Assembly: GCA_963824385.1 (NCBI GenBank)
Contig: CAWGPD010000005.1
Coordinates: 1-24,858 of the forward strand
Direction: 5' to 3'
DNA: 24,858 bases
Source of the DNA: an uncultured Nitrososphaerota archaeon
Lineage (GTDB): Archaea > Thermoproteota > Nitrososphaeria > Nitrososphaerales > Nitrosopumilaceae
Shown here: one piece after another, positions 1,729-22,430 of the stretch
How the letters are laid out: each line of letters opens with the position of its first letter
How positions within the stretch are numbered: the first letter of the stretch is position 1
Notes under the pieces: model-generated
The model's input: the letters and a program-made list of their open reading frames with translations, nothing else
What the model was told of the DNA's origin: nothing
The model's database searches: none
Program-made: the position numbers and the translations under genes

Positions 1729-1853
1729 AAGTCTTACAGTTTTTGAACTAACAGTTAATCCGAATCCAAGAGATTTTGTGAGTAAAATTTGATACAAAAT
1801 GTGCAGTAAGCTTATCTGGGTAGCTACAAAACTCCCTCTCTTAATTTTTTATT
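1729..1853 (+). repeat. Copy of the intergenic element also at 7344-7497, lacking the left arm
   Basis: 1730-1781 matches 7377-7428 at 48/52 nt; CTACAAAACTCCCTCTCTTAATTTTTTATT resembles ATACAAAACTCCTTTCCTTAATTTTTTATT at 7466-7495. Confidence 0.92.
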
Positions 1854-4132
1854 CTCTATGAGGTATTTTTATCACAAATGTGGATGGCAGTTTTACATGT
1901 ATTGTCCATCCATGTTGTTCTATTAGGTTCCTACAGGTTGGTAATCCAAGACCTGTACCTGATCTTTTTGTTGTAAATAGCGGTTCAAAGATATGTGATA
2001 ACACCTCAGGTGATATACCGTTTCCAGAATCTGAAATTTCTATCACATCACCATCAAATTCATTTCTGATCGCCACAGTGATTTTGCCTTTATTGGCATC
2101 GACTGCCTGAATTGCATTGTTAATTATATTTTCAAAAACGATTTCCAATTTTATTTTATCACAGTCTACCAGTAGATCATTGTTAGGCAAAGTTATCTCG
2201 ATATTATCAGGCAATATTATTTTATCAACGCAAGAGTTTAGAATTTGTAATATTGAATTAGACTCTTTTTTGATATCAGTAGATCTGACAAAATTCAATA
2301 CATCTTCAATCTGGTATGATATTCGCAAAGCAGATTTATCGATCATGTTAATTAGAGATAATTCTTTTTCAGTCATGTCTTGTTTACGCATTATTAACAA
2401 TTCGGCGGCATTGTGAATTACGCTTAGAGGACTTCGTATATCATGCGAGAGTCTAGATGATAGACTCACCTATTGTTGTTAGTCTTTTTGTCTTTTCTTC
2501 CTCAAGTGCTTCCCTAGTACTAAAAATTTCGGTCATATCTCTTAGGGAAACTGTTCTTCCTATCACCTTGCCTGAATCGTCATAAAAGTTTGCTCCGCTA
2601 AGAAGGGTAGGAAATTCCGAACCGTCTTTTCTTGTCAACCAAATAGTTTGATTTATGATTCTATCAGTCTTTTTCCATTTCTCCATTCCTTTTGATAATT
2701 CCTTGAGGCTTTTTTTGGATGTATGTTCAAAAATGGATTTCCCGATTACTTCATCTTTTGTATAACCTAGACTATTTGTGTAATTATCATTGCAATCTAG
2801 TATGATTCCATCTTCAGAAATAGAACGTAGAAGATCAGGTGCATACTCGTAAAGACTTCGATATTTCTTCTCTGTTGCAGAGAGAATCTCATAGGTTTTT
2901 CTTAGTTCTTCGTATTGGTCTAGTGCACGCTTCTCTGATAATTCTAGTTTCTCAACTTCTACAAGTTTTTCTCGTGCGGCCTGTATGTTTTTAATCATGT
3001 GGTTAAATGACCTGCCAAGTTCTCCAAATTCATCAACAGAATCTTCCTCCACCATCGTTCCAAAACCTTTTGCAGATACTTGCTCAGTTGCTATTTTTAG
3101 TCTAGTAATGGGCTCTGAGATGAACTTGGATGCAATCAATGCAAAAACCATCACACTGACCATAGTTATTGATACAAGTACCAGTATTCCATTGCCCAGT
3201 GTGGCGATAGGTTCTGAACTTTTAGCTAAATTGTAACTCAATGCCCCAATGAAGATGATCGGAATTATAGAGGATATCAGAAATAATGTAATTAATTTTG
3301 TTTTCAATCTAACAGATCTAATAGTTTTCTCCATAGAATAATGGGATTTCAAAATCACTAGTGTTATTCCAGATAAAATAAACAATATGCTAGTATGAAA
3401 TGCCATTCCAGTACTCAATCCGGGTATGTAAAAGTAGAGAAACGATAAATTCGTAGCATATCCGATAAGACCAAGACCTCCAGATGACAGTAAAACTAGA
3501 CCAATCCAAAATGAGGGCTTTTTTGATTTTATATAATTGGACAGAGAAAATATTCCAGCCGTTACTATTAGAATAAAGTCTGCCATTGTAGCTATTGACG
3601 GTCTTCCTAGAACAGAGGTGTTTTCGTTATGTGATTCTTTTACAAATAAATTCTCGATTCCTGTGTATATGCCGGTGAGATTGGATACAAGTAATGTAGC
3701 CATAAACAGAAAAATCACCAGACCTGATGCCGAGATGGCAATTTCGCTTAGACCAAGTCTTCCTTTTTGCATCTTTGCAATAAAATATAGAACAATCCCA
3801 CTGAAAATAAAAGATGCCGAAGTACTAAATTTCATAGTTACTGCATGAGGTAATACTTCTTCCAAAGGTACTACATTGAATACCCATCCAATTGTGACCA
3901 ACATTCCTACACCAAAAATTATTATTGCCAAAATTTTTGCTATTTTGATTTCTAGTCCTTCCATTTGGCAACCAATTTTTTCATCATGCTGTACACTAGT
4001 ACGATATTTTGATATTTTATCGTACAGGTTTTTGCATTTTTTGTTTTCAGAATTTTTAATTTCATCATTGTCAGATTTTAATAATTTATTCTCATCATAG
4101 TCAAGACTCCCATCACTGGATTTATCAGTCAT
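1849..4132 (-). CDS. Membrane sensor histidine kinase (multi-TM, HAMP, PAS, HisKA, HATPase), one apparent +1 frameshift near 2464
   Basis: ORF 2453..4132 has TM helices, HAMP (DEFGELGRSFNHM) and PAS; ORF 1849..2469 has SHDIRSPL, NIINNAIQA, DSGNGI, GTGLGL. Removing one base gives TTIGELSSRLSHDIRSPL, about 760 aa. Confidence 0.92.
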
Positions 4133-4221
4133 TTCTCATGTTATAGCTAGTACAAAACGGTATATTGTGCTGTTTGTTCAAAAAAAACATACTTTGAGTA
4201 AATAAGGAAATTGGTTTATCT

Positions 4222-4237
4222 GAGTCTTACAGGACGC
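4222..4237 (+). repeat. GAGTCTTACAG core repeat copy
   Basis: GAGTCTTACAGGACGC, preceded by AATAAGGAAATTGGTTT, which resembles the A-rich arm. Confidence 0.85.
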
Positions 4238-4312
4238 ATTTTGTCACTTGTAATCAAAATAATCATTGCATGATGTATTCTAACATATTACGTTCTGTGT
4301 CTGGTTGTCATT

Positions 4313-4543
4313 CTAGACGGATCTGAAGATTAGTGCAATATACCCGATTAGCACTCCGGCCCATATCGTACCTGCACCTTCCCAGAATGCAAGTTGATTG
4401 GTGCCGCCTCCATATCCTCCACTTTGTGGATGGATTACGAATATTGTCACTAGGCAGCATGCCAGCATCAATGCTACTCCTATTGGCAGATATCCATCAT
4501 GTCGTTTTCTTTGTGTTTCATACGAACTTGTGTATGATGACAT
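4313..4543 (-). CDS. Small two-TM membrane protein (76 aa from ATG 4543)
   Basis: Two hydrophobic segments separated by a Gly-rich loop; the ORF-track extension to 4681 looks non-coding. Confidence 0.6.
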   Translation of the reverse strand: MSSYTSSYETQRKRHDGYLPIGVALMLACCLVTIFVIHPQSGGYGGGTNQLAFWEGAGTIWAGVLIGYIALIFRSV

Positions 4544-4757
4544 GGTGAATAATACGTGATTCAAAGATATACGGATATCGAATCTGAGACAGTTCATTTT
4601 ACATGTAATGTAGAACATTTGTGAAGTAAAACGTATGATCTGATGATGAAGGATTATGCCACGGCAGAGCCTAAAATTCATTGGTCAAACTTTGGAACGA
4701 ACTACAGAAAATCTATCCCTTTCACTATTTCTTAATAGTTTGAGTGTCGTATGATAA

Positions 4758-5183
4758 TTGAGTCCTATGTTTGCAAGGATACTTGTGGCAGTCGATGGTT
4801 CGGAATCTGCAAAAAAAGCATTTGAAAAATCAATCTACCTTGCTCAAAAATGTAATCGAAAGCTAGATCTGGTTCACGTTGTAACATGCGAACTTGGTGG
4901 AGATAGTACCATCATTTATGATCTGTTAGATGAGGCCAAGATAAAGGCTAAAAAAATGTTGAAAGAATACAAAATTGAGGCCTCTAAAAATAACATTCCG
5001 TTGGAAATCACGATAACACAAGGAGATGCAGCAAAGATCATAATTGAATTTTCAAAGAAGAACAAGTATGATCTTATAATCATGGGAACTCGTGGAAGAA
5101 ATGCCTTTGAGGAATTGTTACTTGGTAGCGTCTCGTTGAAAGTTATGCATCATGCAATTTGTCCAGTAATGGTAGTAAGATAG
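4758..5183 (+). CDS. Universal stress protein (UspA family)
   Basis: ILVAVDGSESA and DLIIMGTRG...LLGSVSLKVMHHAICPVMVVR. Start may be ATG 4767. Confidence 0.95.
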   Translation: MSPMFARILVAVDGSESAKKAFEKSIYLAQKCNRKLDLVHVVTCELGGDSTIIYDLLDEAKIKAKKMLKEYKIEASKNNIPLEITITQGDAAKIIIEFSKKNKYDLIIMGTRGRNAFEELLLGSVSLKVMHHAICPVMVVR

Positions 5184-5391
5184 TGTATTTGGAATGTTTA
5201 CCTTTGAGAGTCATTTATTTTCTTGATCATTGTGTTCTTTTTCTTTTAATTGGAATGTATTTGGCCTTATGGCAAAATGTGAATTGTACCATCATCAAAC
5301 CAGTTACAGTCACAGAGTTCCTGAGAATTTTTTCCAATTTGCTTCATGCATATCATGGCTACTCCCTTATGATCATCTTTTGAATGTCCGC

Positions 5392-5402
5392 ATGTCTTAC
5401 AG
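5392..5402 (+). repeat. Degenerate core repeat copy (ATGTCTTACAG)
   Basis: 9/11 match to the core, intergenic, followed by TTCAAACTGA, similar to TTGAACTGA and TTCAAACTAA after other copies. Confidence 0.6.
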
Positions 5403-5593
5403 AAATTCAAACTGATGAAATCCTATAACCGAATTTATTATAACCAGAAGTTTTATGGACAATTTCCAGTGATTGTTTCAATGAGATAATTGATCTTCCA
5501 AGTTCTTAAAACTTTACTACAGCAGCATGTATTCCCAAGCAAATCGGAGGTAAACCATTTTTACGGATTGTCGATAAACTCGTTTGGAGAATT

Positions 5594-5622
5594 AAAATAA
5601 AAAAAGGAAAAGGAGTTTTGTA
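5594..5622 (+). repeat. A-rich arm AAAATAAAAAAAGGAAAAGGAGTTTTGTA
   Basis: Similar to 7344-7373 and to the reverse complements of 1825-1853 and 7467-7497; last 13 nt identical to 6149-6161. Confidence 0.85.
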
Positions 5623-5623
5623 A

Positions 5624-6104
5624 CTACTCTGAAATTGTAATGCGAAAGATTTTAGCCTCTTGGTCAGGGCAGTCATTCTTGCCTCTAGGAAGGTGGCCGA
5701 TTCTTGTCAGCAACATCCATGCCGCTCTTTACCTCACCAAACGCTGTATACTGGCCGTCAAGGAACGTGCTGTCACCTGTTACGATGAAAAACTGTGAAC
5801 CTGCACTGTTTGGGTCGTCGGACCTTGCCATGGAAACAACGCCTCTCTGGTGAGGTTTGGAATTAAATTCTGCCTTTATTGCATATCCAGGTCCTCCCAT
5901 TCCCCAACTGCTTTTGTCTGGTTGTTTTGTATTTGGATCTCCGCCCTGAATCATGAATCCGGGTATTATCCTGTGGAAAAGTACGCCATCATAAAAATTG
6001 GACTTGGCCAGTTTGACAAAATTCCTTACGGTCTCAGGAGCATAATTTGGTAATAGTTCAAAAACAATGTTTCCAAAGTTGGTCTCTATTGTAGCTTGGG
6101 GCAC
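5624..6104 (-). CDS. Cyclophilin-type peptidyl-prolyl isomerase, one apparent +1 frameshift near 5701
   Basis: FHRIIPGFMIQGGDP, SMARS.DPNSAGSQFFI, FLDGQYTAFGEV. Removing one base extends it to DKIGHLPRGKNDCPDQEAKIFRITISE*, stop at 5624-5626. Confidence 0.95.
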
Positions 6105-6148
6105 GCTTCACAAACAGCCATTTTATCATAAGAGTCTTTCTTCATTCC

Positions 6149-6179
6149 AAGGAGTTTTGTAGCGAGTCTTACAGAACTC
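6149..6179 (+). repeat. Arm end fused to core: AAGGAGTTTTGTAGCGAGTCTTACAGAACTC
   Basis: Exact core at 6164-6174; same arrangement as 7361-7386. Confidence 0.9.
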
Positions 6180-6195
6180 AGGTTTCAAACTAATT

Positions 6196-7254
6196 TTATT
6201 TAGATTTTAAAAGTCTTACAACAAAAATAGTTCCACTGGCGCTAGTCGATTTTACCTTTACACTACCACCATGCTTGCGCATTATAACATCACTTGCAGG
6301 CAATCCAAGACCGGTTCCTATCATCCTTGTTGTAAATAATGGATCAAATATTTTATCTAGCAAATTTTGTGGGATTCCTGTACCTGTGTCTCTCATTTCT
6401 ACTTCAACATCAGTTGCGTTTTCTATTATCTTGATGTCTATTCTGCCATTATTTTCCATTGCTTGGATTGCATTTAAAATTAGATTTACAAATACTATCT
6501 CAAGTTTGTTTGGATCACAGAGTGCTATTACATCATTATCTGGCAGGTTAATTTGTATACTCTCTGGAATTGTTATTCCATTTACAGTATTTGTAATTAT
6601 GTCTAAAATTGAACAAAGTTGTAATGCTAATTCAGGAGATCTTACATATTCCATCACTTCATTTACTTGGTGAGACATTCGATCAACTGCACGGGTCATC
6701 ATGTCAACGTGGTGAAATGCTTCTTTTGAAACAAGGTTTTTTGATTTCATAAGCTCGATGCTATTTTTTACTATGTTCAGTGGGTTTCGAAAATCATGCG
6801 CTATTCTTGCAGTAAGTTCTCCGAGTATTGTCATTTGTTGAAGCTTAAGATTACTTATCAATTCCCTTGCATTTGTCATGTCAGATATGTCCCTTATCAC
6901 ACTATTACTACCAAGCAAATTTTTGTTCTCGTCATACAGGCTAGACGCACTGATTAATGCAGGAAATGTACTACTGTCTTTTCTTTTCATTATGATCTCC
7001 CTGTTTGTTACACTACCTGTTTTTTTCCATGTGTCAAACGAGTTTTTCATTGCAGGTATGCTAGAACAATGAACGTGCTCAAAGATGGAAGCGCCTATTA
7101 CCTCTTCTTTTGCGAATCCCAGATCTTTTGCATATGATCTGTTACATGCAATGATTATGCCGTTAGTATCTATGGTTCTGAACATTACTGGAGAATCTTC
7201 ATAATGATTCTTGTAAATTACCTCATAAGGAAAATATTGATTATCTTTGGACAT
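6196..7254 (-). CDS. Cytoplasmic PAS histidine kinase
   Basis: PAS domain, AHDFRNPL, NLILNAIQA, DTGTGI, GTGLGL; no TM. Start set at ATG 7254 (ORF open to 7308). Confidence 0.93.
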   Translation of the reverse strand: MSKDNQYFPYEVIYKNHYEDSPVMFRTIDTNGIIIACNRSYAKDLGFAKEEVIGASIFEHVHCSSIPAMKNSFDTWKKTGSVTNREIIMKRKDSSTFPALISASSLYDENKNLLGSNSVIRDISDMTNARELISNLKLQQMTILGELTARIAHDFRNPLNIVKNSIELMKSKNLVSKEAFHHVDMMTRAVDRMSHQVNEVMEYVRSPELALQLCSILDIITNTVNGITIPESIQINLPDNDVIALCDPNKLEIVFVNLILNAIQAMENNGRIDIKIIENATDVEVEMRDTGTGIPQNLLDKIFDPLFTTRMIGTGLGLPASDVIMRKHGGSVKVKSTSASGTIFVVRLLKSK

Positions 7255-7343
7255 GATTTTATGAAAGATTTTCTGGCTTTTAATAGATTGTATCACATTT
7301 TTATACAAAAATGATGATAAAAATCGATTACAATGTTCGGATC

Positions 7344-7497
7344 AAAATAAAAATTAAGGAAAGAAGTTTAGTAGTGAGTCTTACAGTTTTTGAACTGACA
7401 GTTAGTCCGAGTCCAAGAGATTTTATGAAAACATAGTATGATAGAGATAAGCTGAATCGAAGTAGATACAAAACTCCTTTCCTTAATTTTTTATTTT
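7344..7497. repeat. 154-bp element with imperfect ~30-bp terminal inverted repeats (MITE-like or recombination-site-like)
   Basis: Left AAAATAAAAATTAAGGAAAGAAGTTTAGTA vs reverse complement of right AAAATAAAAAATTAAGGAAAGGAGTTTTGTA; core at 7376-7386. Confidence 0.85.
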
Positions 7498-7593
7498 ATC
7501 TTATTGTTTCATGTCTTTAGAACTATAATTTATTTTCAATAATTGTTTCAGTTGAGGGAATTAAATACATCTTATAATTAGGCTTGCCTAAGA

Positions 7594-9114
7594 ATGATAT
7601 CAAAAACCGTTATTTTATTTGGCATAATCATCGCACTCTCATCTGCTCTGACAGGAGTTGTTGTCTATCACTTTACGTCAAATTCAAATCAGGTTGCGAT
7701 GGTAACCAAGACACCTACACCTATTGTATTACAAGGTGTAACTAGGACCTATTACATGGCAGCAAACGAGGTAAACTGGAATTATGCTCCGTCCGGTACA
7801 AACCTGATAACAGGCAAGCCTCTTGCAAATGATTCTGTAACAGCACTCTATACACAAAATGGAGTAGACAGGATTGGTAGTGTGTATCTAAAGTGCCTCT
7901 ACCAGGGATACACGGATGATTCCTTTACAACACTACAAAACCGAACTGCCGAGTGGCAACATCTTGGCATACTTGGACCTGTGATTCATGCAGAAGTTGG
8001 TGATACCATCAAAGTAGTATTCAAAAATAATTGCAGAATTCCTGTCAGCATACATCCACATGGAGTTTTGTATGACAAGGCCTCAGAGGGTGCACCATAC
8101 AATGACGGTGTGCCAGATTCTCAAAAAGCAGGTGATGTAGTACCACCTGGTGGCAACTTTACATATATCTGGAATGTGCCAGAGAGGGCAGGTCCTGGAC
8201 CACATGATCCAAGTTCTATACTATGGATGTATCATTCACATGTAAATGAAATAACAGATACAAATGCAGGACTTGTCGGACCTATTATAATAACAAGAAA
8301 TGGAGAGGCAAATCCTGATGGCACTCCAAAAGGTGTGGACAGGGAGTTTGTTACTTTGTTTACCATATTCAATGAGACTCAAAGTCCTTACTTGGCAAAT
8401 AACATCAAGACATTTACTGGCGAGAACATGTCGCAGGTAAACGAGACTGACCCGAATTTCTGGGAAAGCAATCTCAAGTATTCCATTAATGGGTACATCT
8501 TTGGAAATACTCCTGGACTTGACATGCAACAAAATACTCATGTACGCTGGTATGTGGCAGGCATGGGTGGCGAGAGCGATTTGCATGCACCACATTGGCA
8601 TGGAAATACATTGTTAATTGACGGCATGCGCACAGACATGGTAGAACTTCTTCCAATGAGCATGAAAGTGCTAGATATGTACCCTGATAACGTTGGCACC
8701 TGGCTTTTTCACTGCCATGTAAATGATCACATCCAAGGCGGAATGCTGGCACTATATACAGTTGAGAAAAATAATGGGACCCAAGGCACCAATACATCTG
8801 GAGAGAATCTCAAAATTGGATTAACAACTGATACTGCAAATCCAACTACTGGTCAACCAACTAACCTCAAGGTGGATTTTATCGACAGTCAAACAAATTC
8901 AATTGAGGAGCACGTTGACTACAAGGTTTCAATCCTCCAGGGAACAACACAGGTGTTCTCCACCTCTGTCTCACATACTACAAATGGTTCTGTCACTATA
9001 CCATACCAGTTCCAAAATGCAGGAGCTTACCAGATAGTAGTTGAGGTGGACGGGGTTTGGTTCCTGCCAGCTTCAGAGACAGCGCAATTTCCAATCAATG
9101 TTTCAAATTCATAA
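7594..9114 (+). CDS. Membrane-anchored two-domain multicopper oxidase with extra C-terminal beta-rich domain
   Basis: N-terminal TM/signal; Cu motifs HPH, HSH, HAPHWH, HCHVNDHIQGGM (type 1 site only in domain 2). Confidence 0.92.
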   Translation: MISKTVILFGIIIALSSALTGVVVYHFTSNSNQVAMVTKTPTPIVLQGVTRTYYMAANEVNWNYAPSGTNLITGKPLANDSVTALYTQNGVDRIGSVYLKCLYQGYTDDSFTTLQNRTAEWQHLGILGPVIHAEVGDTIKVVFKNNCRIPVSIHPHGVLYDKASEGAPYNDGVPDSQKAGDVVPPGGNFTYIWNVPERAGPGPHDPSSILWMYHSHVNEITDTNAGLVGPIIITRNGEANPDGTPKGVDREFVTLFTIFNETQSPYLANNIKTFTGENMSQVNETDPNFWESNLKYSINGYIFGNTPGLDMQQNTHVRWYVAGMGGESDLHAPHWHGNTLLIDGMRTDMVELLPMSMKVLDMYPDNVGTWLFHCHVNDHIQGGMLALYTVEKNNGTQGTNTSGENLKIGLTTDTANPTTGQPTNLKVDFIDSQTNSIEEHVDYKVSILQGTTQVFSTSVSHTTNGSVTIPYQFQNAGAYQIVVEVDGVWFLPASETAQFPINVSNS

Positions 9115-9149
9115 AAAATGAAAAATTGAGTTCAAACTTGTGAGGGTTC

Positions 9150-9164
9150 GAGTCTCACAGGACT
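9150..9164 (+). repeat. Core repeat variant GAGTCTCACAGGACT
   Basis: 14/15 identical to 9758-9772; intergenic. Confidence 0.85.
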
Positions 9165-9216
9165 TTAATCTATTGGTAGGAAGATTAAAGAAAAGCTCTG
9201 CTAATTTATCTTTGAT

Positions 9217-9582
9217 ATGCAAAAACCAATACCTGAATTAGAATCAATTTGTAAAAAAGTCGTTGAGTTGGATCCCAATGTTAGATTTACAGGAATAGTT
9301 TCTACTAAAGGTAAGCTCTTGGCGTCGCACAAAAAAGGAGGAATAAAACTACATGTAAATGAAAAAAATCATGAAATGTTATTCATGGGACTTGCCCTCA
9401 AGGAGAGGATGCGACAAGATTATGATGAACAACTTGGTCCTGTGGACTATACAGTATCACATAGGGCAAAATGCGTAATAATTGGTGTTCCTTTTGAGAA
9501 AAACATACTGCTCATATCAGGAGAAAAAGATTTGGATGTAACAAAGATTTCATCTAAAATATTGCAAATGCTCAATGCCTAA
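9217..9582 (+). CDS. Small roadblock/sensor-like thaumarchaeal protein (DUF6659-like)
   Basis: LDPNVRFTGIV..KGKLLA...RMRQDYDEQLGPVDYTVSHR pattern recalled from this family. Confidence 0.7.
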   Translation: MQKPIPELESICKKVVELDPNVRFTGIVSTKGKLLASHKKGGIKLHVNEKNHEMLFMGLALKERMRQDYDEQLGPVDYTVSHRAKCVIIGVPFEKNILLISGEKDLDVTKISSKILQMLNA

Positions 9583-9606
9583 GACTATAAGCAAAAATGA
9601 AAAAAT

Positions 9607-9748
9607 TGCAGACTCGGTCGATTCCTGTTCTAAGGCAATAACAAAAGACCCTTAGAACACGAACCGCTTGATGTTTGTGTTAGTCTGCACAATCTATTAC
9701 GTGATACGGATTCAAAAGATTTTGTTTGTTTATTTTGAAACAAACAAA
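9607..9748. other. Nested inverted repeats: structured RNA or terminator candidate
   Basis: Stems 9607-9614/9682-9689 (8 bp), 9615-9620/9660-9666, 9626-9635/9650-9659 (10 bp), 9721-9731/9738-9748 (11 bp). Confidence 0.6.
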
Positions 9749-9757
9749 GAAAAATCA

Positions 9758-9772
9758 GAGTCTTACAGGACT
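9758..9772 (+). repeat. Core repeat copy GAGTCTTACAGGACT
   Basis: Exact 11-mer core, intergenic. Confidence 0.88.
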
Positions 9773-9974
9773 AGAGTATTCAATGGTTTTAAGCTAGTGA
9801 GATTTGGTGACCAGCAAGCGTACAAAATATGCACAGTGCATAATATTTACTCCAGATATCTCGCGTACAACCACATTTACAGGGACATTTTCTTAGTTTC
9901 AATTTTTTATCCTATATATCATAAGAATGACTTGGGTATTTGTAAGATTATCTAATTTATCAATTTAACAAGAT

Positions 9975-10421
9975 CTAGTGAACAATGGTAACCGGGCAGG
10001 CAGCGTGTTCTGATACATGTCTTGCAGTACTTCCAAGTCTTTTTAGAGATGAAACACCTGTTAGCTTTCTGCTTCCCATTACCACTAGATCAATTTTTGA
10101 TCTTTTTATCTCTTTTAAAATGGCATCAGATACGTCATCATGAACAATTTTATAAAATGCCTTTGCGCCCTCCTCTCTGCATTTTTCTGTAATTTTTTTC
10201 ATCTCTTTTTCACCTTGTTCAGTTAAAGCTTTTACAACCTGCTGATAATTCATAACTGCAGTTCCTGAAAAAACAGAGTCACTTATTGGATAGTAGACAG
10301 GAATTACCATCAAGAGTTTCAGATCAGCATTAAAATTTCGTGCAATATCTTTTGCCAATTCTAATGCTTTTTTTGAAAGTGGTGAGCCATCATATGGCAC
10401 TAGAATATTTTTTAGTAACAA
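9975..10421 (-). CDS. Universal stress protein (UspA family)
   Basis: NILVPYDGSPLS and DLVVMGSR...LGSTARHVSEHAACPVTIVH. Confidence 0.95.
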   Translation of the reverse strand: MLLKNILVPYDGSPLSKKALELAKDIARNFNADLKLLMVIPVYYPISDSVFSGTAVMNYQQVVKALTEQGEKEMKKITEKCREEGAKAFYKIVHDDVSDAILKEIKRSKIDLVVMGSRKLTGVSSLKRLGSTARHVSEHAACPVTIVH

Positions 10422-10691
10422 CTAGAATAATTCCTTAACTTTACTTCTGTATGCTTCAACGATTTGTCCAAATTCTGTAAAGTCACTTGCAGATGGAGTT
10501 TGCATTCTGAAAGCAAGCTGAGCTACAAAGAGTGTAAACGCGTTTCCCATCATCATGTTAAAAGTCAATTCAGAGAGGTCTTGAACCGCAGGAAATGCCA
10601 CTTTTAGAAATGGCAAGTATGCCTTGGTCTGGTTTAACATAAGTTCCATGTTTTTTTCAATTGCTGCTTTTACCTCAGGCTGAATAGTCAT
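10422..10691 (-). CDS. Hypothetical helical protein
   Basis: 89 aa ORF abutting both neighbours (0 and 1 nt gaps), so probably operonic. Confidence 0.75.
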   Translation of the reverse strand: MTIQPEVKAAIEKNMELMLNQTKAYLPFLKVAFPAVQDLSELTFNMMMGNAFTLFVAQLAFRMQTPSASDFTEFGQIVEAYRSKVKELF

Positions 10692-10692
10692 G

Positions 10693-10899
10693 CTAATTCA
10701 CCGAGACGACCTGGTACGGTTTTGATTGATAGTGGGTAGAGCATAAAAACACCATTTCTCCATTTAATACCTTGGCTGTAATTGATATACCATTTAATTC
10801 TTTTTTACATATATGACATGTAAGCGGTTTGACATCAGATTTTATGAATTTTTTTTCATGTGAAAAATACAAGTCCTGAGCTATGAAACTGTCTGCCAT
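10693..10899 (-). CDS. Small zinc-finger protein (CxxC...CxxH)
   Basis: CHIC and CSTH; TATA-like TTTAATAA about 25-30 nt upstream on the minus strand. Confidence 0.72.
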   Translation of the reverse strand: MADSFIAQDLYFSHEKKFIKSDVKPLTCHICKKELNGISITAKVLNGEMVFLCSTHYQSKPYQVVSVN

Positions 10900-11020
10900 A
10901 TTTCATAAAAGACAGTTTCAATATTATTAAAGTGATCTTCATTATCAAGGCTGATTCCAAGTGGTTATCAGTTTTGATAATCCTGACAGAAATTTTATAC
11001 TAAATTAATGGATTATTGTC

Positions 11021-11470
11021 ATGACAATAGCTCGCGATATAATGTCAAGTAAAATAGTCACAATGGAATCAAATGTATCATCTACTGAAATTGCAAAGAT
11101 TATGGACAAAAACAAGGTAAGCAGTGTTATAATAACAAAAGATCAAGTACCAATTGGCATAGTAACGGAGAGAGACATGGTGTCAAAAATCGTTGCACAA
11201 AACAAGAAACCGTCTGAAGTAAAGACTGCAGAGATTACAGCCTCACCTCTTTTCATAGTAAGTTCACTTACACCTACAGATGATGTAGCAAAGAAAATGG
11301 TAGATAAAAAAATTAGGCGAGTTGTAGTAATGGATTCTGACCAGGCACTAGGAATCATAACGGTGACAGATTTTGTAAAGCACTTGCATGAGATGCTTTC
11401 AGATTCCGAAAATTACAACAAGATTCTATATCAGCATCTAATAGAAGACTGGGAATACTGGATGTCCTAA
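11021..11470 (+). CDS. CBS-domain pair protein
   Basis: ARDIMS, PIGIVTERDMV, GIITVTDF. Confidence 0.93.
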   Translation: MTIARDIMSSKIVTMESNVSSTEIAKIMDKNKVSSVIITKDQVPIGIVTERDMVSKIVAQNKKPSEVKTAEITASPLFIVSSLTPTDDVAKKMVDKKIRRVVVMDSDQALGIITVTDFVKHLHEMLSDSENYNKILYQHLIEDWEYWMS

Positions 11471-11595
11471 TCAGGACATAAATTTTTGTTAGTATAAAAT
11501 TTGAAATTAATGTATGAATCCAAGGATGGTTCTGGCATTACCATGTCTGATAATAGAATGTCAAGTTTTTATGTATCAGTTTCATACTGGAACCA

Positions 11596-12039
11596 TTGGA
11601 TAATTTTTCTGCCAAAGACATAATGAAGAATCAGGTTGTTACAGTTGATTCTGCCATGACAGTTATGGATACAGCAAAGATAATGGATGATGCAGGCATT
11701 GGCTGTGTTGTTGTTATAGAGAACAATATTGCAGTGGGCATTGTAACAGAGCGCGATTTTGTCAAAAGGGTTGTATCTCGTGCAATTCCACTGACAACTC
11801 CAATAAAAAAAGTAATGTCGTCTCCGTTGATTGTAGTAAATCCAGAAGAGAATATTTGGGAAGTGGCAGAACTTATGAAACAGCGAAGAATTCACAAGGT
11901 TCCAGTGGTATATCAAGATCTACTAGTTGGAATTGTAACAGCGACCGACTTGACTAAATTATGCAGCATTGGTTCTGATTCAGAGATGCGAAGGATAACA
12001 GACCAGATACTTTTGAGAATGAAGCCTGCAGACAAGTAA
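11596..12039 (+). CDS. CBS-domain pair protein
   Basis: AKDIMK, VGIVTERDFV, VMSSPLIVV, VGIVTATDL. Confidence 0.93.
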   Translation: MDNFSAKDIMKNQVVTVDSAMTVMDTAKIMDDAGIGCVVVIENNIAVGIVTERDFVKRVVSRAIPLTTPIKKVMSSPLIVVNPEENIWEVAELMKQRRIHKVPVVYQDLLVGIVTATDLTKLCSIGSDSEMRRITDQILLRMKPADK

Positions 12040-12045
12040 TTTAGT

Positions 12046-12915
12046 TTAATTTTTAACTATAGCGCGTACAATGTCAGTCTTTGTCACAATCCCTACCAAT
12101 AAGCTTGCCCTTGACAACTGGCAAGCCGCTGATTCCATTTCTTATCATCAAGAGCGAGACATTTGATACATCGTCTGATACATCTACAGTTACTGGGTTT
12201 GATGTCATAATATCAGTTGCAATAAATGTCAAAAGATAACTTAGTTGGTTTGAGCGATACTCTTTTGGATTTGTAGCCATCCTATAGTTTTCAACCTCAG
12301 TTGGATCTCCGGATTGTTTTAGCCACAGAGGCATCTTGGCAGGTATAAAATCTCGGTGAGTGATAATTCCTACAGGCTGTCTGTTTCTTTCTACAACTAC
12401 TCTAGATATTTTATTGTTGACAAGAACGCTTTCAACGTATAGTAGTGAATCAGTCTGGTTTTACTGTAATTACATCTCTTGTCATAATTTTAGAGACTAG
12501 TAATGGTTCTGTGGCTTGTGTCAAAAATACGGATGCCAAGTCTGTCTTTGTAATAATTCCAGCTAGTGTCTTGTCTTTGTGTAGCACTATAACAGAACTG
12601 ATTTTATTATCAAGCATTAGTTTAGCACAGTCGTATAACGTTGCACCTTCTGGAACAGTAACAAGGTCTTTAGACATAACATCAAATACGCGTGTAGCTT
12701 CAAGTGGTTTTGCATCAATTCTATAGATTGCCTTTACCAAGTCTTTTTCTGTCAGCATTCCTACTGGCTTGTCTTTTTCTGATACAATGAGTCGGCTAAT
12801 CCTGTGCTTTAGTAAGATTGCTCTTGCATCCAAGAGGCTTGTTCGTGGGGTTACTACAATTGTTTTTTTAATTACTTGATTTATACTGTCATTTTTTAGT
12901 TTCAATAATTTTCAT
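12046..12915 (-). CDS. Four-CBS-domain protein with apparent +1 frameshifts (about 12901, 12452, 12098)
   Basis: ORFs 12450..12905 and 12074..12334 join through DSLLYVESVLVNNKISRVVV..PVGIITHRDF and end VGIVTKTDIVRAIVKN*. ATG 12915 start needs a third correction, otherwise TTG 12905. Confidence 0.87.
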
Positions 12916-13037
12916 ATATTTTGGGTAGATTATAGGCTTTTTACAAATCTCACTTGTGATAACATTGTCAATACTTTCATAATTACAATCCAGCTACACT
13001 TTTGGTGATAATTTTCTAGGTTCTAATCCGGGTGAAT

Positions 13038-13228
13038 TCGGGTATCAACATGGGCTAATTTTGGACCCACTTTTCGTAAAATTGCAAAAATTGTAGTGGT
13101 GGTATTGAACTAATATTGCAATACCCATCAAAGGTATCATTACGGGTCAAACTATTCTAAGTTAGTAGATGGGTCTAACAGGATTCAATCCAACCTATGC
13201 AGATGTAACATGGGTCTAAAATTATTCC
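13038..13228. repeat. Left cluster of GGGTC-family repeats
   Basis: 13141-13182 matches the reverse complement of 22431-22474 (38/42 plus a 2-nt gap); 13200-13228 matches the reverse complement of 22455-22483 (25/29). Confidence 0.85.
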
Positions 13229-13241
13229 TAATATCTGTGTA

Positions 13242-13799
13242 CTACATGTCGTGTTGATTTGGATATAGCCAACTTCGTAGAAGTATACTCAATCTTGGCA
13301 AAGCAAAGTAAGTCAATACAGCCACGAGAATGCCCACATAAACAAAATTACTTGCTAACAACGACCATGAATCCAAATAAGAGGCAAGAAGAAAATGGGC
13401 GATAAAACTGACTACATATGCTGTTAGGAGAGTCACAATGAACATCTTCCACTTCGGAGGAGCTTTTACAGTCTTCAAATTTGGTAGTGCAAACCATGTT
13501 TCCATGCCCGTTGCCCTCTCGTAATGTTGGGTTGAATAATTCTTGACCTCATCCACAAGCTTGTTTCTTGCATCAGAGTTTTCCCAATTGTCCAAGGTGG
13601 TTTTATTATCGAAACGACATATCAAATATCTCAAGTCTGAATCCACTCCTTCGGGTGCAAGTGATGTCATTCCTCTATATCCTGGTGATTCTCGCATGGC
13701 TTGAATAAGACGATGCAACCAGTCCTCATACGCTTCTCTCTGGCCCGGCTTAATCTTTCTGTTGACAACCAGAATAGCATCGTCAGATGGTGTGACCAT
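13242..13799 (-). CDS. ABM (antibiotic biosynthesis monooxygenase)-fold protein with two C-terminal TM helices
   Basis: IKPGQREAYEDW..SPGYRG, LDNWENSDAR, TGMETWF..PPKWKM, hydrophobic C-terminus. Confidence 0.85.
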   Translation of the reverse strand: MVTPSDDAILVVNRKIKPGQREAYEDWLHRLIQAMRESPGYRGMTSLAPEGVDSDLRYLICRFDNKTTLDNWENSDARNKLVDEVKNYSTQHYERATGMETWFALPNLKTVKAPPKWKMFIVTLLTAYVVSFIAHFLLASYLDSWSLLASNFVYVGILVAVLTYFALPRLSILLRSWLYPNQHDM

Positions 13800-13923
13800 A
13801 ATATGTGCTCAATCTAACATGTGCTACTTGTTATAATAAATGATCCTCGATGATGAGTCTATGACTTAATTTTTGGACTAGAAATAATAAAAAATTTTTT
13901 AGTTAGACTGTATACAATATGAC

Positions 13924-14046
13924 ATGAATTTTGGCCTTTGTCTATTTTGTAACATGCATAGAGAACTTGAGATGCATTACTCCAAAAAATATACAAAGTC
14001 AGTTGAGATATGCAAAGACTGTCACAAATCAAAACCGCTTGATTGA
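13924..14046 (+). CDS. 40-aa zinc-binding microprotein (not in ORF track)
   Basis: MNFGLCLFCNMHRELEMHYSKKYTKSVEICKDCHKSKPLD*; CxxC...CxxCH. Confidence 0.65.
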   Translation: MNFGLCLFCNMHRELEMHYSKKYTKSVEICKDCHKSKPLD

Positions 14047-14061
14047 TTAAAAATTTGGAAA

Positions 14062-14865
14062 CTAGTAAAATTTAGTTCTGCCCTTTACAATTGGCTTCGC
14101 AATATTCCACAAGTATTCAAAATAATCATTACACCATTCATAAAATTCAGGATCTTTTCCGATAAATAACGTGTTCATGTCCACTTCTCCCTTTTGGTTT
14201 GGAAACATTATTGCAGCTTGCTTGTCTGCAATAAACAGCGAGATCTTCACATTACCATCTACTATTTTCTGTTCCAAAGATCCTTTTTGGATAAAACTTA
14301 TCAATTTCTTTTGTATGTTATCTACAATTTCATCTGGCATGACTGAATCAAATCCAAAAATTGTAGATATTTTTACGCCGTTCTTTACCCTGTCTAGCAG
14401 TATTTTTCCTTCATCTTCCCAAGCCTGAGAGACAATCAACTTTATGTGATCTTTTGCCTCAGATTCTATTTTTTTTATTCTCTGTTGCACAATTGTTACC
14501 TTGGTTATCAGTTCACAGTTGTTCAAAACTCCAAGTCTTTGTTTGAATTTTGGTGGAAGATCATATGAGTGGTCCTCGATGAAATCCTGATGCTTGAATA
14601 AGAATTGATAATATTGGATTTGTTCAACGATTAACTTGCCATATTCGGTTAAGGAGAACAACCCTTCCGAGTCTTTTCTTATTATTCTAGTCTCTGTAAG
14701 CCTAGCAGTGTTTCTATGGATCTCTTGAACTGTAAGATTGAGATCCTTGGCAAGTTTATTGGTCCTAGTTGGTTTTTCTTTTAGCATCAAAAGTATTGCA
14801 CACCTTGTCTCGCTAGCTAGTTCCATAAACAGATCAGCGGGTAAATTTGGATCAGAACTTGCCAC
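14062..14865 (-). CDS. Archaeal winged-HTH transcriptional regulator (ArsR-like N-terminus, DUF1724-like C-terminus)
   Basis: LASETRCAILLML..LAKDLNLTVQEIHRNTARL..FSLTEYG; C-terminal FYEWCNDYFEYLW. Confidence 0.85.
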   Translation of the reverse strand: MASSDPNLPADLFMELASETRCAILLMLKEKPTRTNKLAKDLNLTVQEIHRNTARLTETRIIRKDSEGLFSLTEYGKLIVEQIQYYQFLFKHQDFIEDHSYDLPPKFKQRLGVLNNCELITKVTIVQQRIKKIESEAKDHIKLIVSQAWEDEGKILLDRVKNGVKISTIFGFDSVMPDEIVDNIQKKLISFIQKGSLEQKIVDGNVKISLFIADKQAAIMFPNQKGEVDMNTLFIGKDPEFYEWCNDYFEYLWNIAKPIVKGRTKFY

Positions 14866-14931
14866 GATATTATGAAAGTAACCTATTGTAAAAAGTTCTC
14901 GTATATTAAAAAATGAGGTTAATGTTTATGG

Positions 14932-15084
14932 CTAAAATTCAATTTTTCGAGTAGAGTGCTTTGTTATCTCATTATGTAGCGTTACTGACGATTCATCATG
15001 AAATGTAAGATTACACCTATAGCATATCCAAAAAGATGGGATTGTTGGCTGTTTTATCAGCCCAACAGAAACTTGTGAAGCCAT
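14932..15084 (-). CDS. 50-aa C2H2-like zinc-finger microprotein
   Basis: WICYRCNLTF...LHNEITKH; ATG 15084 lies 1 nt after the upstream ORF stop. Confidence 0.72.
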   Translation of the reverse strand: MASQVSVGLIKQPTIPSFWICYRCNLTFHDESSVTLHNEITKHSTRKIEF

Positions 15085-15085
15085 C

Positions 15086-15202
15086 TTAGCCGTATGTCCT
15101 CCCACAGGTTTCACATTGCCAATGTGATGTTATGACAGTCCATTTGTGCTCATGTTGTGTTTCTGATATTCTATTTCTTGGAATTTGGTTTATTGTTTCC
15201 AT
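15086..15202 (-). CDS. 38-aa HxHxW...CxxCG zinc-binding microprotein (not in ORF track)
   Basis: METINQIPRNRISETQHEHKWTVITSHWQCETCGRTYG*. Confidence 0.65.
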   Translation of the reverse strand: METINQIPRNRISETQHEHKWTVITSHWQCETCGRTYG

Positions 15203-15257
15203 ATGGTCCTAGTCGAAGAAGGTGATGATATATTCAAGTAAATTCAATTCTTGAGAT

Positions 15258-15283
15258 GTAAACAGATCTGTTTACTGTAAACA
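15258..15283. promoter_or_regulatory. Candidate operator in divergent promoter
   Basis: Perfect 18-bp palindrome GTAAACAGATCTGTTTAC overlapping TGTTTAC-T-GTAAACA. Confidence 0.65.
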
Positions 15284-15349
15284 ACTTTCTTTAAAATTCC
15301 AGTCTTTCGTTTAGGGCATCTTAAGTAAATTCCCGACTATACTGTTTAC

Positions 15350-16099
15350 ATGATTCGAATAATCAAAGAACAAGAACAATACAAGGGAGAAAGTGACTGG
15401 TTAACAACATATCACCACTTTTCTTTTGGTGAATATTATGATCCAAGTAAAGTCAACTTTGGACCATTACGTGTCTTCAATGACGATATAATACAACCTG
15501 GAAAAGGTTTTGATTTTCATCAACATCAAGACATGGAGATAGTAACCTATGTGGTAGAAGGAGAACTTGAGCACAAGGACAATCTTGGAAATCATGGAAT
15601 AATACAACCAGGCGAAATACAGAGAATGTCAGCTGGAACGGGGGTATTCCATTCAGAATTTAACCATTCAGATGTAAAGCCACTTCGACTATTACAGATT
15701 TGGCTTTTTAGCAACACCAGAGGATTAAAGCCATCATGGGAACAGAAAAAATACACAAAAGATGATAGGAAAAACAAGTTACTTCCTATAATTAGTCCAA
15801 AGAACTCTTACCAAAAAGACAGACTTGCAATAAGCCAAGATGCTACTTTTTACATCTCAAATCTGGAAACAGGTAATGATCAAAACTATATAGTAAATAG
15901 AGATAGAATACTCTACTTGTTTGTAATTGAAGGCAAAATTACATTAAATGGCAAAGTGCTCAATACAAGAGACTCGGCACAGGTAGAGAATGAAGAGAAC
16001 TTGAAGATACAAGCTCAAAGAGATACTGAGCTTATCTTAATTGATCTGCCAATTAGATATATGAAAAATTCAGTGCCAGTGGAGGTTACACAAAAATGA
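15350..16099 (+). CDS. Pirin-family bicupin (YhhW-like)
   Basis: HHFSFGEYYDP, LRVFNDD, HQHQDMEIVTYV, HKDNLGN, MSAGTGVFHSEFN, LLQIW. Confidence 0.95.
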   Translation: MIRIIKEQEQYKGESDWLTTYHHFSFGEYYDPSKVNFGPLRVFNDDIIQPGKGFDFHQHQDMEIVTYVVEGELEHKDNLGNHGIIQPGEIQRMSAGTGVFHSEFNHSDVKPLRLLQIWLFSNTRGLKPSWEQKKYTKDDRKNKLLPIISPKNSYQKDRLAISQDATFYISNLETGNDQNYIVNRDRILYLFVIEGKITLNGKVLNTRDSAQVENEENLKIQAQRDTELILIDLPIRYMKNSVPVEVTQK

Positions 16100-16743
16100 G
16101 TATCAATGGAGAAAAACCATTGAAGACACTAATTGTACAATATACCCCGCGAAATGAAAGATCAAACACCAAAAAGATACTAGATGCTTTCATTGGAGAG
16201 ATAAAAAATTCAGATATTGAAAGACTTGATCTAGTAAAAGATGTACCAGACTTGTTTTCAGAACAAAATTTATCTGCGTATATCCACCGCAATTATCTAG
16301 GAGAAGAACTATCTTCTGACCAGAAGAGTAGTTTATCAAAAATGGATCGTATGACTGCACAGCTAAAATCAGCTGATGTAGTAGTCGTTGCATTTCCAAT
16401 GTTTAATTTCTCAATGCCTGCAACTGTCAAGGCTTGGTTTGATTATGTAATGATAAAAGGACAAACATGGGATGCCAAGGATGGAAGCTACATTGGACTA
16501 ATGAATGGAAAAAAAGCCTTGGCTATTGTATCATCAGGCACAGTTTACGATACCGAACCAATGGCATCATGGGAATATGCATTATCGCTTGCAAAGATTG
16601 AATTCCAGTTTATGGGATATTCTGATATCCGTGGAATTCTTGCTGGTGGGATGAATGCTGGAGAAGATGTAAAATCTTTGAATTTAGAAAATTCTATCAA
16701 GCAAGTACAATCAATAGCACAAGAATGGAGTAAAGAAAAATGA
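16096..16743 (+). CDS. azoR: FMN-dependent NADH-azoreductase / NAD(P)H:quinone reductase (flavodoxin-2 fold)
   Basis: ADVVVVAFPMFNFSMPATVKAWFD, GKKALAIVSSG; ATGA overlap with pirin. Confidence 0.88.
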   Translation: MSINGEKPLKTLIVQYTPRNERSNTKKILDAFIGEIKNSDIERLDLVKDVPDLFSEQNLSAYIHRNYLGEELSSDQKSSLSKMDRMTAQLKSADVVVVAFPMFNFSMPATVKAWFDYVMIKGQTWDAKDGSYIGLMNGKKALAIVSSGTVYDTEPMASWEYALSLAKIEFQFMGYSDIRGILAGGMNAGEDVKSLNLENSIKQVQSIAQEWSKEK

Positions 16744-16823
16744 GAGCATACTACCACTTTTCCTTTGGTGAATCTTATGATCCAAGTTATATCATAATGC
16801 GTGATAAAGTGGTACTTGTTTGA
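16740..16823 (+). pseudogene. Pirin 5' fragment forming a 27-aa mini-ORF
   Basis: 16753-16787 matches 15414-15448 at 33/35 nt; reads MRAYYHFSFGESYDPSYIIMRDKVVLV*. Confidence 0.7.
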
Positions 16824-16839
16824 TGGTGGTTGCGTAAAA

Positions 16840-17247
16840 ATGAGTCAATCTAATAATCCGTTGGAGATGAAAACCTATCTCATAGACGATAGTTTAAAAT
16901 TATTTGGGCAAAAATTTGCATTAGATGTAATTCAAAATATGTTATTTCTAAAACAAAAAAGATTCAGCGAGTTTTTGCATTCAATTGACGGCATAAACAC
17001 AAAGACGCTATCTATTAGGTTAAAGGATCTAGAAGGATACGGATTAGTTGAAAGAAAGATCCTAAAGAATAGACCTCTTGAAGTAGAATACAATTTAACT
17101 GAAAAAGGAATGGCTTTGGAATCTATTCTAACTGAGATGATTGAATTTTCTAAAGTTTTTAAATCTAAAAACACTTTTGAAGATGGAAAACAAGATGAAA
17201 TATTTCTTGGATCCAAAACAAGATTATCTTCTGTTTATGATTACTGA
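16840..17247 (+). CDS. HxlR-family winged-helix regulator
   Basis: KRFSEF..IDGINTKTLSIRLKDLE..GLVER...VEYNLTEKG. Start set at ATG 16840 (ORF open from 16801). Confidence 0.92.
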   Translation: MSQSNNPLEMKTYLIDDSLKLFGQKFALDVIQNMLFLKQKRFSEFLHSIDGINTKTLSIRLKDLEGYGLVERKILKNRPLEVEYNLTEKGMALESILTEMIEFSKVFKSKNTFEDGKQDEIFLGSKTRLSSVYDY

Positions 17248-17417
17248 AATTTATTTTATAGTTCAAACTCAAATCCTAAGTACAGCGAATCTATAAATTA
17301 GTAATTCTGAATGATCTAGAAAATAATCTAAACTTCACATTTTCACTAATCAAAAATTTATCATGTTACCTTGTCGAAACTTCCATCAATAAATACCAGA
17401 ATATTATATTTACATCA

Positions 17418-18078
17418 ATGACAAACATCGACAACCAAATTCACAGCTTACTAGATCCAAAAAATTGTGTTCTTGTCCTGATTGATTTTCAGCCGCAGAT
17501 GGCATTTGCTGTAAAATCAATTGATGGTCAGACATTGATCAACAACGCAGAAGGTCTTGCAAAGGCCGCTAAAATCTTTAACGTGCCAACAATTCTCACT
17601 TCAGTTGCAGAAAAAAGTTTCTCTGGACCTTATTTCACGCAGATAAAAAAGGTCTTTCCAGGTCAAGAAGTGATTGACCGTACAACCATGAACAGTTGGG
17701 AGGATAAGAGAGTCGTAGATGCAATCAAAAAAACTGGACGTAAAAAGATAGTTTTTGCGGGACTTTGGACAGAAGTCTGTATTGTAACGCCCACAATTAT
17801 GGCATTAGAAGAAGGATACGAAATCTATGTGGTAGTAGATGCATGCGGTGGGACAAGCCAAGTTGCACACGACATGGCAATGCTCCGTATGATACAGGCA
17901 GGTGCAGTACCAGTAACATGGCTGCAATTTCTGTTGGAATTACAGCGTGATTGGGCACGAACCGAAACATATGATGCTGTCACAACTCTCGCAAGAGAAG
18001 ATGCCGGCAGTTACGGTTTGGGACTAGAATATGCAAAAGCTTATGCTTGGCGAACATGCTCGTGAGGGCAGTAAGTAA
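17418..18078 (+). CDS. ycaC: YcaC-like isochorismatase-family hydrolase, apparent +1 frameshift near 18042
   Basis: LIDFQPQM, DRTTMNSWED, AGLWTEVC, ELQRDWAR. As given it stops at 18065; the inferred correction ends AKAMLGEHAREGSK*. Confidence 0.9.
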
Positions 18079-18160
18079 ATTGGAGTATACTTTATGAAAT
18101 CAAAACATCTCCAACCCACATTTTTAATTTCTTGTAATAAAATAAACCAGAGGTCAAAAT

Positions 18161-19981: not shown

Positions 19982-20018
19982 GTTGCGAGTTAAAATAGTT
20001 CCAGAATATTTGTAATCC

Positions 20019-21635: not shown

Positions 21636-21645
21636 TCTGAAAAGT

Positions 21646-22125
21646 TTGAATAATTTTGGATTGTTTAATTTTTCACTAATTCTCCTTATTTTTGTTTTAA
21701 CAATGATCACGCCATCGTACGGGGAAGAAATTCCAAACACAAATTCGTCGAAACAAGTGACAATATTCATTCAGCCCCCTAATGTAGGAACGCCATATGA
21801 TCCTAAAGAGATACACATAATTCAAAATTCAATAGTTACATGGATTAATAACGACAATGTCAGTCATACTGTTACAAGTGGAGATCCACAACAAGGTGCT
21901 GACGGAAAATTTGATAGTGGTTTGATTAAACCTGAAAAAGAATTTTCTCATACTTTCACAGAAATCGGCACCTTCAATTATTATTGTCAAGTTCATCCTG
22001 CAATGACAGGAATAGTAATCGTTGATGCAAACATAGTACCTGAATTCCCATTTGCTGCTGTTATACTAGTAATTGCAACATTGTCTATTGTTTTGATTTC
22101 AAGAATCAAACAATACCATATCTGA
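21646..22125 (+). CDS. Exported plastocyanin/azurin-like blue copper protein with PEF-type C-terminal sorting signal
   Basis: Signal peptide, HTVTSG, YYCQVHPAM type 1 Cu ligands, VPEFP followed by TM and basic residues. Confidence 0.92.
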   Translation: MNNFGLFNFSLILLIFVLTMITPSYGEEIPNTNSSKQVTIFIQPPNVGTPYDPKEIHIIQNSIVTWINNDNVSHTVTSGDPQQGADGKFDSGLIKPEKEFSHTFTEIGTFNYYCQVHPAMTGIVIVDANIVPEFPFAAVILVIATLSIVLISRIKQYHI

Positions 22126-22137
22126 AAATTTAGCCAT

Positions 22138-22232
22138 AAAGTGGGCTCAAAATAGACTCTTGTACATGAACCTCCCGAGCCTGAACCATGACAAAATGAA
22201 CGGGTATCAAACTAATTTAGGCAAACCCACCC
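22138..22232. repeat. Degenerate GGGTC-family repeats
   Basis: AAAGTGGGCTCAAAATAG resembles the reverse complement of 13054-13073; CGGGTATCAA is identical at 13039 and 22201. Confidence 0.55.
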
Positions 22233-22279
22233 CCGGTACTCTACAAAATCAAAATTAGTTAGTACAGGGTATGTAATAC

Positions 22280-22423
22280 ATGATGTATTTGACAGATTTT
22301 CTAACACAAAAATCAGGCAATGAAGGAAATCATTGGATGAAGTATCACATGATAATGGAACATGTAAGAAAATATGAAAAGGAATGTGGTATCAAGATAC
22401 TATTGCTAGTAGATGACAAATAA
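22280..22423 (+). CDS. Possible 47-aa small protein or gene remnant
   Basis: MMYLTDFLTQKSGNEGNHWMKYHMIMEHVRKYEKECGIKILLLVDDK*; no recognised motif. Confidence 0.35.
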   Translation: MMYLTDFLTQKSGNEGNHWMKYHMIMEHVRKYEKECGIKILLLVDDK

Positions 22424-22430
22424 GTACGAA

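Follow-up and report, generated by a model that had tools for sequence, protein, structure and literature searches.

Thaumarchaeal cryptic integrated elements (CIE), as presented in the parts of the survey of Krupovic et al. (2019; PMC6563490) considered here, include NitNCS1-E1 at tRNA-Arg(GCG) and the tandem elements NitDev-E2/E3. The genus, the tRNA-Arg(GCG) target, and the short att site CCCCGGGCCCG (Table S2) are all as in the locus described below, and so is a cargo of UspA, CBS, and multicopper oxidase genes; tandem and piggy-back insertion are noted there as well. Because elements at tRNA-Arg(GCG) with short att sites are thus listed for the genus, the parent family of our sequences can be regarded as known. 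Tandem accretion, in the excerpt of PMC5704250 that deals with cis-mobilizable elements (CIMEs), stacks integrase-less units with att ends at a tRNA gene, where they need a related integrase, and the arrangement here is alike. The tycheposons of Prochlorococcus are similar in that small cargo elements and tRNA-specific integrases build islands, and in that flanking host DNA is also carried (bioRxiv 10.1101/2020.12.28.424599, excerpts). Integrons and CALINs, including archaeal ones, share arrays of small units, co-oriented sites, and often no nearby integrase (bioRxiv 10.1101/2022.02.06.479319, excerpts). For most accessory DNA of ammonia-oxidising archaea, the route of movement is not known.

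The window analysed here, a stretch of 24,858 nt, is the whole of contig C5 of a genome assembled from an uncultured Nitrososphaerota archaeon (G000, 86% complete). In this window a cyclophilin gene is placed between parts of element ends, and the explanation that we prefer, and hold to be probable if well short of certain, is that the gene was moved by a trans-acting, tRNA-targeting tyrosine integrase that used the 6-bp overlap TTACAG instead of the 13-bp repeat flanking the gene. Contig C1 of the same genome holds a divergent allele of the island: window positions 4668-23960 correspond to C1:43431-56421 in five blocks at 85-96% identity, and C5 may be a co-assembled strain's version of the C1 island. 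A unit of 1212 bp with a PAS histidine kinase gene (6196-7308, minus strand), lying between overlaps at 6169 and 7381, is present in C5 and missing from the C1 allele, which lacks 6175-7386 and breaks within the sequence called B below; two additional bases in the C1 site may be errors. Public contigs cover the locus at 5948-7522 (run X6, from a different study) and at 3638-6085 (run X3). Single extra bases at window positions 2464, 5701, 12101, and 12454 do not occur in public contigs, and assembly frameshifts probably account for the split kinase at 1849-4132 and the split CBS gene at 12074-12905.

The labels A, B, and Int-A were coined in this analysis. The A arm, of about 30-32 bp, consists of an A-rich run and GGAGTTTTGTA; the copy at 5594-5623 (plus strand) is the outer end of the attR-side right arm of a tRNA-Arg element family, and 64 distinct copies were found in the loci examined in the genus. 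Most copies precede a conserved arm of about 85 bp, at the end of which lies a tRNA core, or else the B motif or the cyclophilin stop codon. The right arm is present in 49 of the 63 genomes of the genus, and a query spanning 7330-7510 matched 21 of 24 relatives within the genus and none of 16 from other families. The right-arm ends are tRNA-Arg(GCG)-type cores that match the 3′ side of the tRNA T-arm, and their alignment with tRNA genes resolves the core into a half-site, a 6-bp overlap, and a second half-site. The overlap tracks an unusual allele of the host tRNA in five genomes (G067, G011, G022, G046, and G015) and tRNA-Val in G043, while about ten arm ends have an overlap found in none of the host tRNAs checked. 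At the far end of the element, the tRNA 3′ end is duplicated in G014, G056, G067, G046, and G043; the window, whose arms end at B, holds no such duplication. One of these arms (7387-7497, minus strand; A at 7497-7466 plus the inner arm) is joined to B in an attR-like junction and meets B exactly where relatives have the tRNA core. Eleven distinct joints of the arm to the B overlap were found, in the same register as at tRNA genes.

The B core at 6163-6184 (plus strand) comprises a half-site (6163-6168), the overlap TTACAG (6169-6174), and a second half-site (6175-6184). Its layout is that of the tRNA-type core with a 6-bp overlap of its own, a mimic of the T-arm attachment core; read on the minus strand, it presents a T-loop-like sequence followed by CTGTAA and a half-site. 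In the window, a complete A|B junction lies at 7344-7386 (plus strand; A 7344-7374, half-site 7375-7380, overlap 7381-7386), and at 1728-1855 a second B site (plus strand, overlap 1734-1739) meets a right arm with its A on the minus strand; the left flank of this site has a different right flank in G061. Further B sites on the plus strand occur at 4221-4242, at 9149-9170 (overlap TCACAG, with the C1 allele diverging at 9136), at 9757-9778, inside which C1 homology resumes at 9759, and, in degenerate form with overlap TAACAG, at 13170-13191. We counted 97 distinct B copies in the loci examined and 16 in G000, compared to 2 in a shuffle; a pattern search returned 40 matches against 1 for a reversed control, a loose pattern gave 396 matches that are mostly chance, and the conservation of B is inflated by a profile built from B sites themselves. 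Exact B 11-mers number six in the window, all on the plus strand. Neighbouring B sites within 8 kb are co-oriented in 36 of 37 pairs, B sites up to 12 kb behind a tRNA gene follow its orientation in 33 of 43 cases, and B can precede or follow a gene. Not every gene is packaged from B to B, since the two homologues of the kinase (in G076 and G024) have no B at the 3′ end of the gene.

A host tRNA as the source of B was rejected, as no tRNA gene called in G000 ends like B. The viral tRNA-Arg(TCT) gene L267:2948-3022 ends in the exact reverse complement of the 20-nt B pattern and possibly hints at the origin of B; it is one of two viral matches, the other being inside an unrelated ORF, so the match could be due to chance. 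An Rfam search gave no match, and the sites are predicted to fold weakly (z from −2.2 to +0.8). At L160:7445 in G059, a forward B is followed at tRNA-core spacing by the leader of a different integrase type, a leader otherwise found at tRNA-Arg, and a second integrase family may thus use B too.

Several dispersed repeats and remnants lie in the same island. A further break between C5 and C1, near 13015, coincides in C1 with a 23-bp remnant of the element arm and core. An intergenic repeat of about 80 bp has inverted copies at 13149-13228 and 22431-22489, 9.2 kb apart; the left copy includes the degenerate B site at 13170, and the block 13242-22125 bounded by the two copies is missing from the C1 allele. 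The third dispersed intergenic repeat, at 9600-9743, recurs at G000:C3:139385 and C3:240318, and 48 nt at the beginning of a pirin gene (15408-15455) recur with 85% identity 1.3 kb downstream, at 16747-16794. A dispersed repeat of about 100 bp at 5490-5588, found also at G000:C1:44313, C3:114090, and C3:127515, abuts the left A arm. Within it, 5546-5562 is a one-mismatch copy of the terminal inverted repeat listed for the casposon NitDev-C2 in the consulted part of PMC6563490; a reading of this motif as a relic of the EF-2 3′ end was not retained.

The position of exchange could be deduced from the flanks that B connects. The upstream flank of the cyclophilin gene meets seven right-flank clusters through B (nine sites), another five right-flank clusters, the arm not counted, are each found with several left flanks, and a contig of run X10 matches the window from exactly 6163 onwards, with another left flank and without the 13-mer. 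Taken jointly, the C1 break, the flank swaps, and the X10 join place the exchange at about 6165-6174, which lies right of the repeat. The initial annotation had regarded the 13-bp repeat as the best local evidence for a crossover position, and this is not borne out, the flank swaps mapping to 6163-6174. On these comparisons the crossover likely falls within the B overlap TTACAG at 6169-6174.

The repeat itself, AAGGAGTTTTGTA, is present as described, in direct copies at 5610-5622 and 6149-6161 that are 539 bp apart. Its left copy indeed ends 1 nt from the stop codon of the cyclophilin gene (CTA at 5624-5626), and, on the upstream side, 44 nt separate the GTG start at 6104 from the right copy. 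Deletion between the two copies yields the proposed joined form resembling 7344-7386, which is also like other joined A|B sites. With no more than one mismatch allowed, the 13-mer has five matches in the window compared to 0.04 expected from shuffles. The 13-mer is not confined to the borders of the cyclophilin gene, since it occurs exactly a third time, at 7467-7479 (minus strand), a copy absent from the initial annotation. Of the 1736 genome ORFs of at least 100 aa, only four are flanked on each side by an exact 13-mer no more than 60 nt away, and one of these is the C1 allele of the cyclophilin; the window's own cyclophilin falls outside this count because a frameshift shortens its ORF. The left copy is the 3′ end of the A arm (5610-5622, plus strand), and the right one belongs to a 14-bp stump of a second A arm within a joined A|B site (6149-6162, plus strand). 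With both copies being 3′ ends of A arms, we read the repeat as a by-product of element ends and not as a crossover.

The cyclophilin gene (PF00160; 5624-6104, minus strand) encodes 159 aa once an extra base near 5701 is disregarded; the resulting frameshift is very likely an assembly error, since neither the C1 allele nor the X3 and X6 contigs have the base. On the question raised in the initial annotation, the gene is a second copy: a housekeeping cyclophilin with neither A nor B site lies at G000:C2:133574-134054, and a tree of 13 mobile-type and five chromosomal copies, without the frameshifted copy of the window, separates the two types with support of 100/100. The C1 allele is 80% identical to the chromosomal-type copy of G006. 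Close copies, with at least 87% DNA identity, occur in 14 of 62 relatives in the genus Nitrosotalea. By their left flanks the 17 mobile loci sort into 11 clusters, and by their right flanks the 16 that have enough sequence there sort into 12, so that in relatives the gene lies at different places between parts of recombination sites. These varied locations also dispose of the alternative named in the initial annotation, of constant flanks with a left arm acting as a terminator only. From these sequence comparisons, we take the gene to be a spare mobile copy of a host protein-folding gene. Its shortened upstream region (6105-6148, minus strand), referred to below as the short allele, is homologous to the upstream region of the chromosomal copy.

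The junctions differ among carriers in a way that bears on the origin of the repeat. In G050, the left junction is undeleted and 159 bp longer than in other carriers: after the cyclophilin stop codon come about 50 bp similar to the beginning of the chromosomal downstream gene, then 13 bp of integrase-side sequence and a tRNA core, with the 85-bp arm and A beyond. The deletion is marked by a 10-bp repeat whose copies are 159 bp apart in G050, and in the other 14 genomes A stands directly at the stop codon. In the window, the putative deletion scar is 5624-5633 (plus strand), where the last cyclophilin codons match the start of the 85-bp arm as this 10-bp repeat. On the other side, the right copy of the 13-mer is missing in nine of 15 carrier genomes, seven of which keep a longer, native-like upstream region. 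The short allele with its A stump occurs in five genomes and a longer stump allele in one; the long allele, in seven genomes, is joined to B at a motif that is also found upstream of chromosomal copies, and two carriers have no upstream B. These junction states imply that the two repeat copies derive from two different A arms. The cyclophilin tree does not order the upstream alleles, as 11 of its 15 branches are open and the short allele is not one clade. The gene would have been captured beside a core, a state retained in G050; a 159-bp deletion between the 10-bp repeats would then have fused it to the A arm, and later joining to a second, truncated A|B site upstream would have produced the 13-bp repeat.

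The likely enzyme is Int-A, a family of proteins of about 420 aa whose genes end just behind tRNA 3′ ends and point at the tRNA. Matches were found in 43 of 63 genomes of the genus and 61 of 151 of the order, and the closest members end 10-20 nt from a tRNA-Arg-type core. R178, K223, Y302-x-x-R305, H332, and Y340 are invariant in all 18 Int-A proteins compared, with YxxR in place of HxxR (e.g. L126:1772-3019, minus strand), and a predicted model (mean pLDDT 77.7) matches XerA, IntI, and Cre, pointing to a tyrosine integrase with an XerA/Cre-like fold. Close members match nothing in Pfam or NCBIfam, so that integrase surveys based on these collections would undercount the family, and a PDB sequence search with the Int-A profile returned only spurious matches to repeat proteins. 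Int-A and an A-arm end bound one element in G014, G056, G041, G043, and G009:C1; in G060 and G050, the A arm, the core, and the Int-A-side sequence meet in a single junction; and in G061 and G014 the 3′ end of Int-A is joined to B in register with the tRNA junctions. The window has no integrase gene, and in G000, at 86% completeness, no close Int-A was found but only a 45% identical homologue, co-oriented behind tRNA-Val. Int-A matches are also absent from several site-rich genomes (G015, G065, G046, G066, and G012), and other integrase types that follow tRNA-Arg(GCG) could be the enzyme. No A or B site occurs within 1.5 kb of PF00589-positive integrases at any of 30 loci, nor, in a narrow test, within the same distance of 18 Int-A homologues from other genera.

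In the preferred explanation, Int-A acting in trans would make both the arm-to-tRNA and the arm-to-B joints, and B sites inside cargo would serve as internal landing and exchange sites. A wider version of it, two-tier integron-like shuffling in which one integrase would handle elements via tRNA overlaps and host genes as cassettes via tRNA-mimic B sites throughout the genome, is tentative and, to us, rather doubtful. It could instead be argued that A and B are attachment scars of tandem insertions, with flanks shuffled by homologous or microhomology recombination and no activity at B. Such frozen debris would account for the many degenerate or truncated copies of A and B, for a left junction and a right stump that look like microhomology deletions, and for the lack of a close Int-A in G000, of excision joints, and of B at one end of the kinase homologues; it sits badly with swaps confined to a core of 12 shared bp, with arm-to-B and Int-to-B joints in exact tRNA register, and with the co-orientation of neighbouring B sites, and we judge it unlikely. 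The excision joints sought, for units of 539 or 1212 bp, did not appear among the contigs of four runs, which drop rare variants, and neither did the kinase-less C1 form among the joints listed from these runs. The model of the initial annotation has a 539-bp unit with the gene integrate into one A|B site; as a single event, the entry of such a circle or fragment would have left 13 bp duplicated, as an att core or TSD. The likeness of the deletion product to intact A|B sites agrees with this, the short allele is found in five genomes, the tree does not tell which allele is the older, and thaumarchaeal att sites can be this short (PMC6563490, in the part considered). Evidence against one-step integration comes from the undeleted left junction of G050, from the carriers devoid of a right copy, from the long allele, which retains more native upstream sequence, and from the third 13-mer in the window. 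Nor was the predicted empty site found in public run contigs or in metagenome scans, where the left flank and the short upstream allele had no matches, perhaps because near records were missing from the scanned set. With the order of the upstream alleles left open by the tree, a single-event origin keeps a small share of probability.

Two other readings deny A and B the role of recombination sites or assign it to another kind of element. If A served solely as a U-rich terminator and B bound a transcription factor, this would fit an arm that is T-rich on the cyclophilin strand directly after the stop codon, and the dyad symmetry of B. On the other hand, A mostly follows genes co-oriented with its A-rich strand, B occurs on either side of genes, core cyclophilin copies have no A arm, and breakpoints fall in B, making this reading very improbable; a terminator role of A may be a side effect. 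The 34-bp inverted repeat at 7340-7500 and the casposon-like terminal motif at 5546-5562 might suggest that 7344-7497 is MITE- or casposon-derived, with 30-bp terminal inverted repeats and the 13-mer as its target duplication. This interpretation is scarcely credible and was dropped, because most arm copies end in a tRNA core and not in a second arm; in addition, 7344-7497 is not bordered by a target duplication, inverted ends are lacking from the 539-bp unit, and no cas1 was found in G000 at 86% completeness. A dif/XerA site was also considered and rejected: 6152-6179 is readable as 11-6-11, yet the left arm varies among B sites, and PF00589 matches in single-contig genomes lie in frames of 358-440 aa, with none in G000. 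An integron or CALIN attC was set aside on account of an overlap of TTACAG and not GTT, the weak folds, and the empty Rfam search; likewise, three Int-A proteins gave no NCBIfam integron-integrase match.

Returning to integrase-mediated movement at TTACAG as the preferred explanation, the case supplies a candidate enzyme missed by Pfam, defined sites with a 6-bp overlap, a natural filled/empty pair in one assembly, and a stepwise series from housekeeping gene to cargo. Should B be active as a second target, this acid-soil nitrifier would have in its islands a cassette system with one integrase and two overlap classes; if B is debris only, the islands would be an ordinary pile-up of known elements. 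A literature search to which subscription journals were mostly inaccessible gave no description of B or of a mobile cyclophilin, and the consulted part of PMC8371274 notes secondary att sites with nothing like B among them.

Compared to CIE as treated in the excerpts of PMC6563490, Int-A carries the catalytic R-K-(H/Y)xxR-H-Y set and the fold, the duplicated tRNA 3′ end is seen in relatives and not in the window, and for the window there is no integrase in the element and only the 45% homologue in the genome. CIE are defined there by att duplication alone; these excerpts leave the conserved right arm undescribed, and they mention no B (0 matches in Table S2), no integrase-less single-gene units, and no capture of a cyclophilin. 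Relative to tycheposons, the host here is archaeal, and internal B sites have no stated counterpart in the excerpts cited. Relative to integrons and CALINs, in the excerpts cited, the locus has no attC hairpin and no IntI family match, its genes run in both orientations, and its sites derive from tRNA att. The units 1734-4232 and 6169-7386 encode no integrase and resemble CIMEs in having kept att ends while having lost integration and transfer genes. Every CIME joint, in the excerpt of PMC5704250, re-uses the tRNA att, whereas here there is a second core, with an overlap that matches no tRNA of G000, with inverted orientation, and with dispersal at non-tRNA loci. By analogy, the locus works like the tandem accretion of integrase-less, CIME-like units stemming from a known CIE family.
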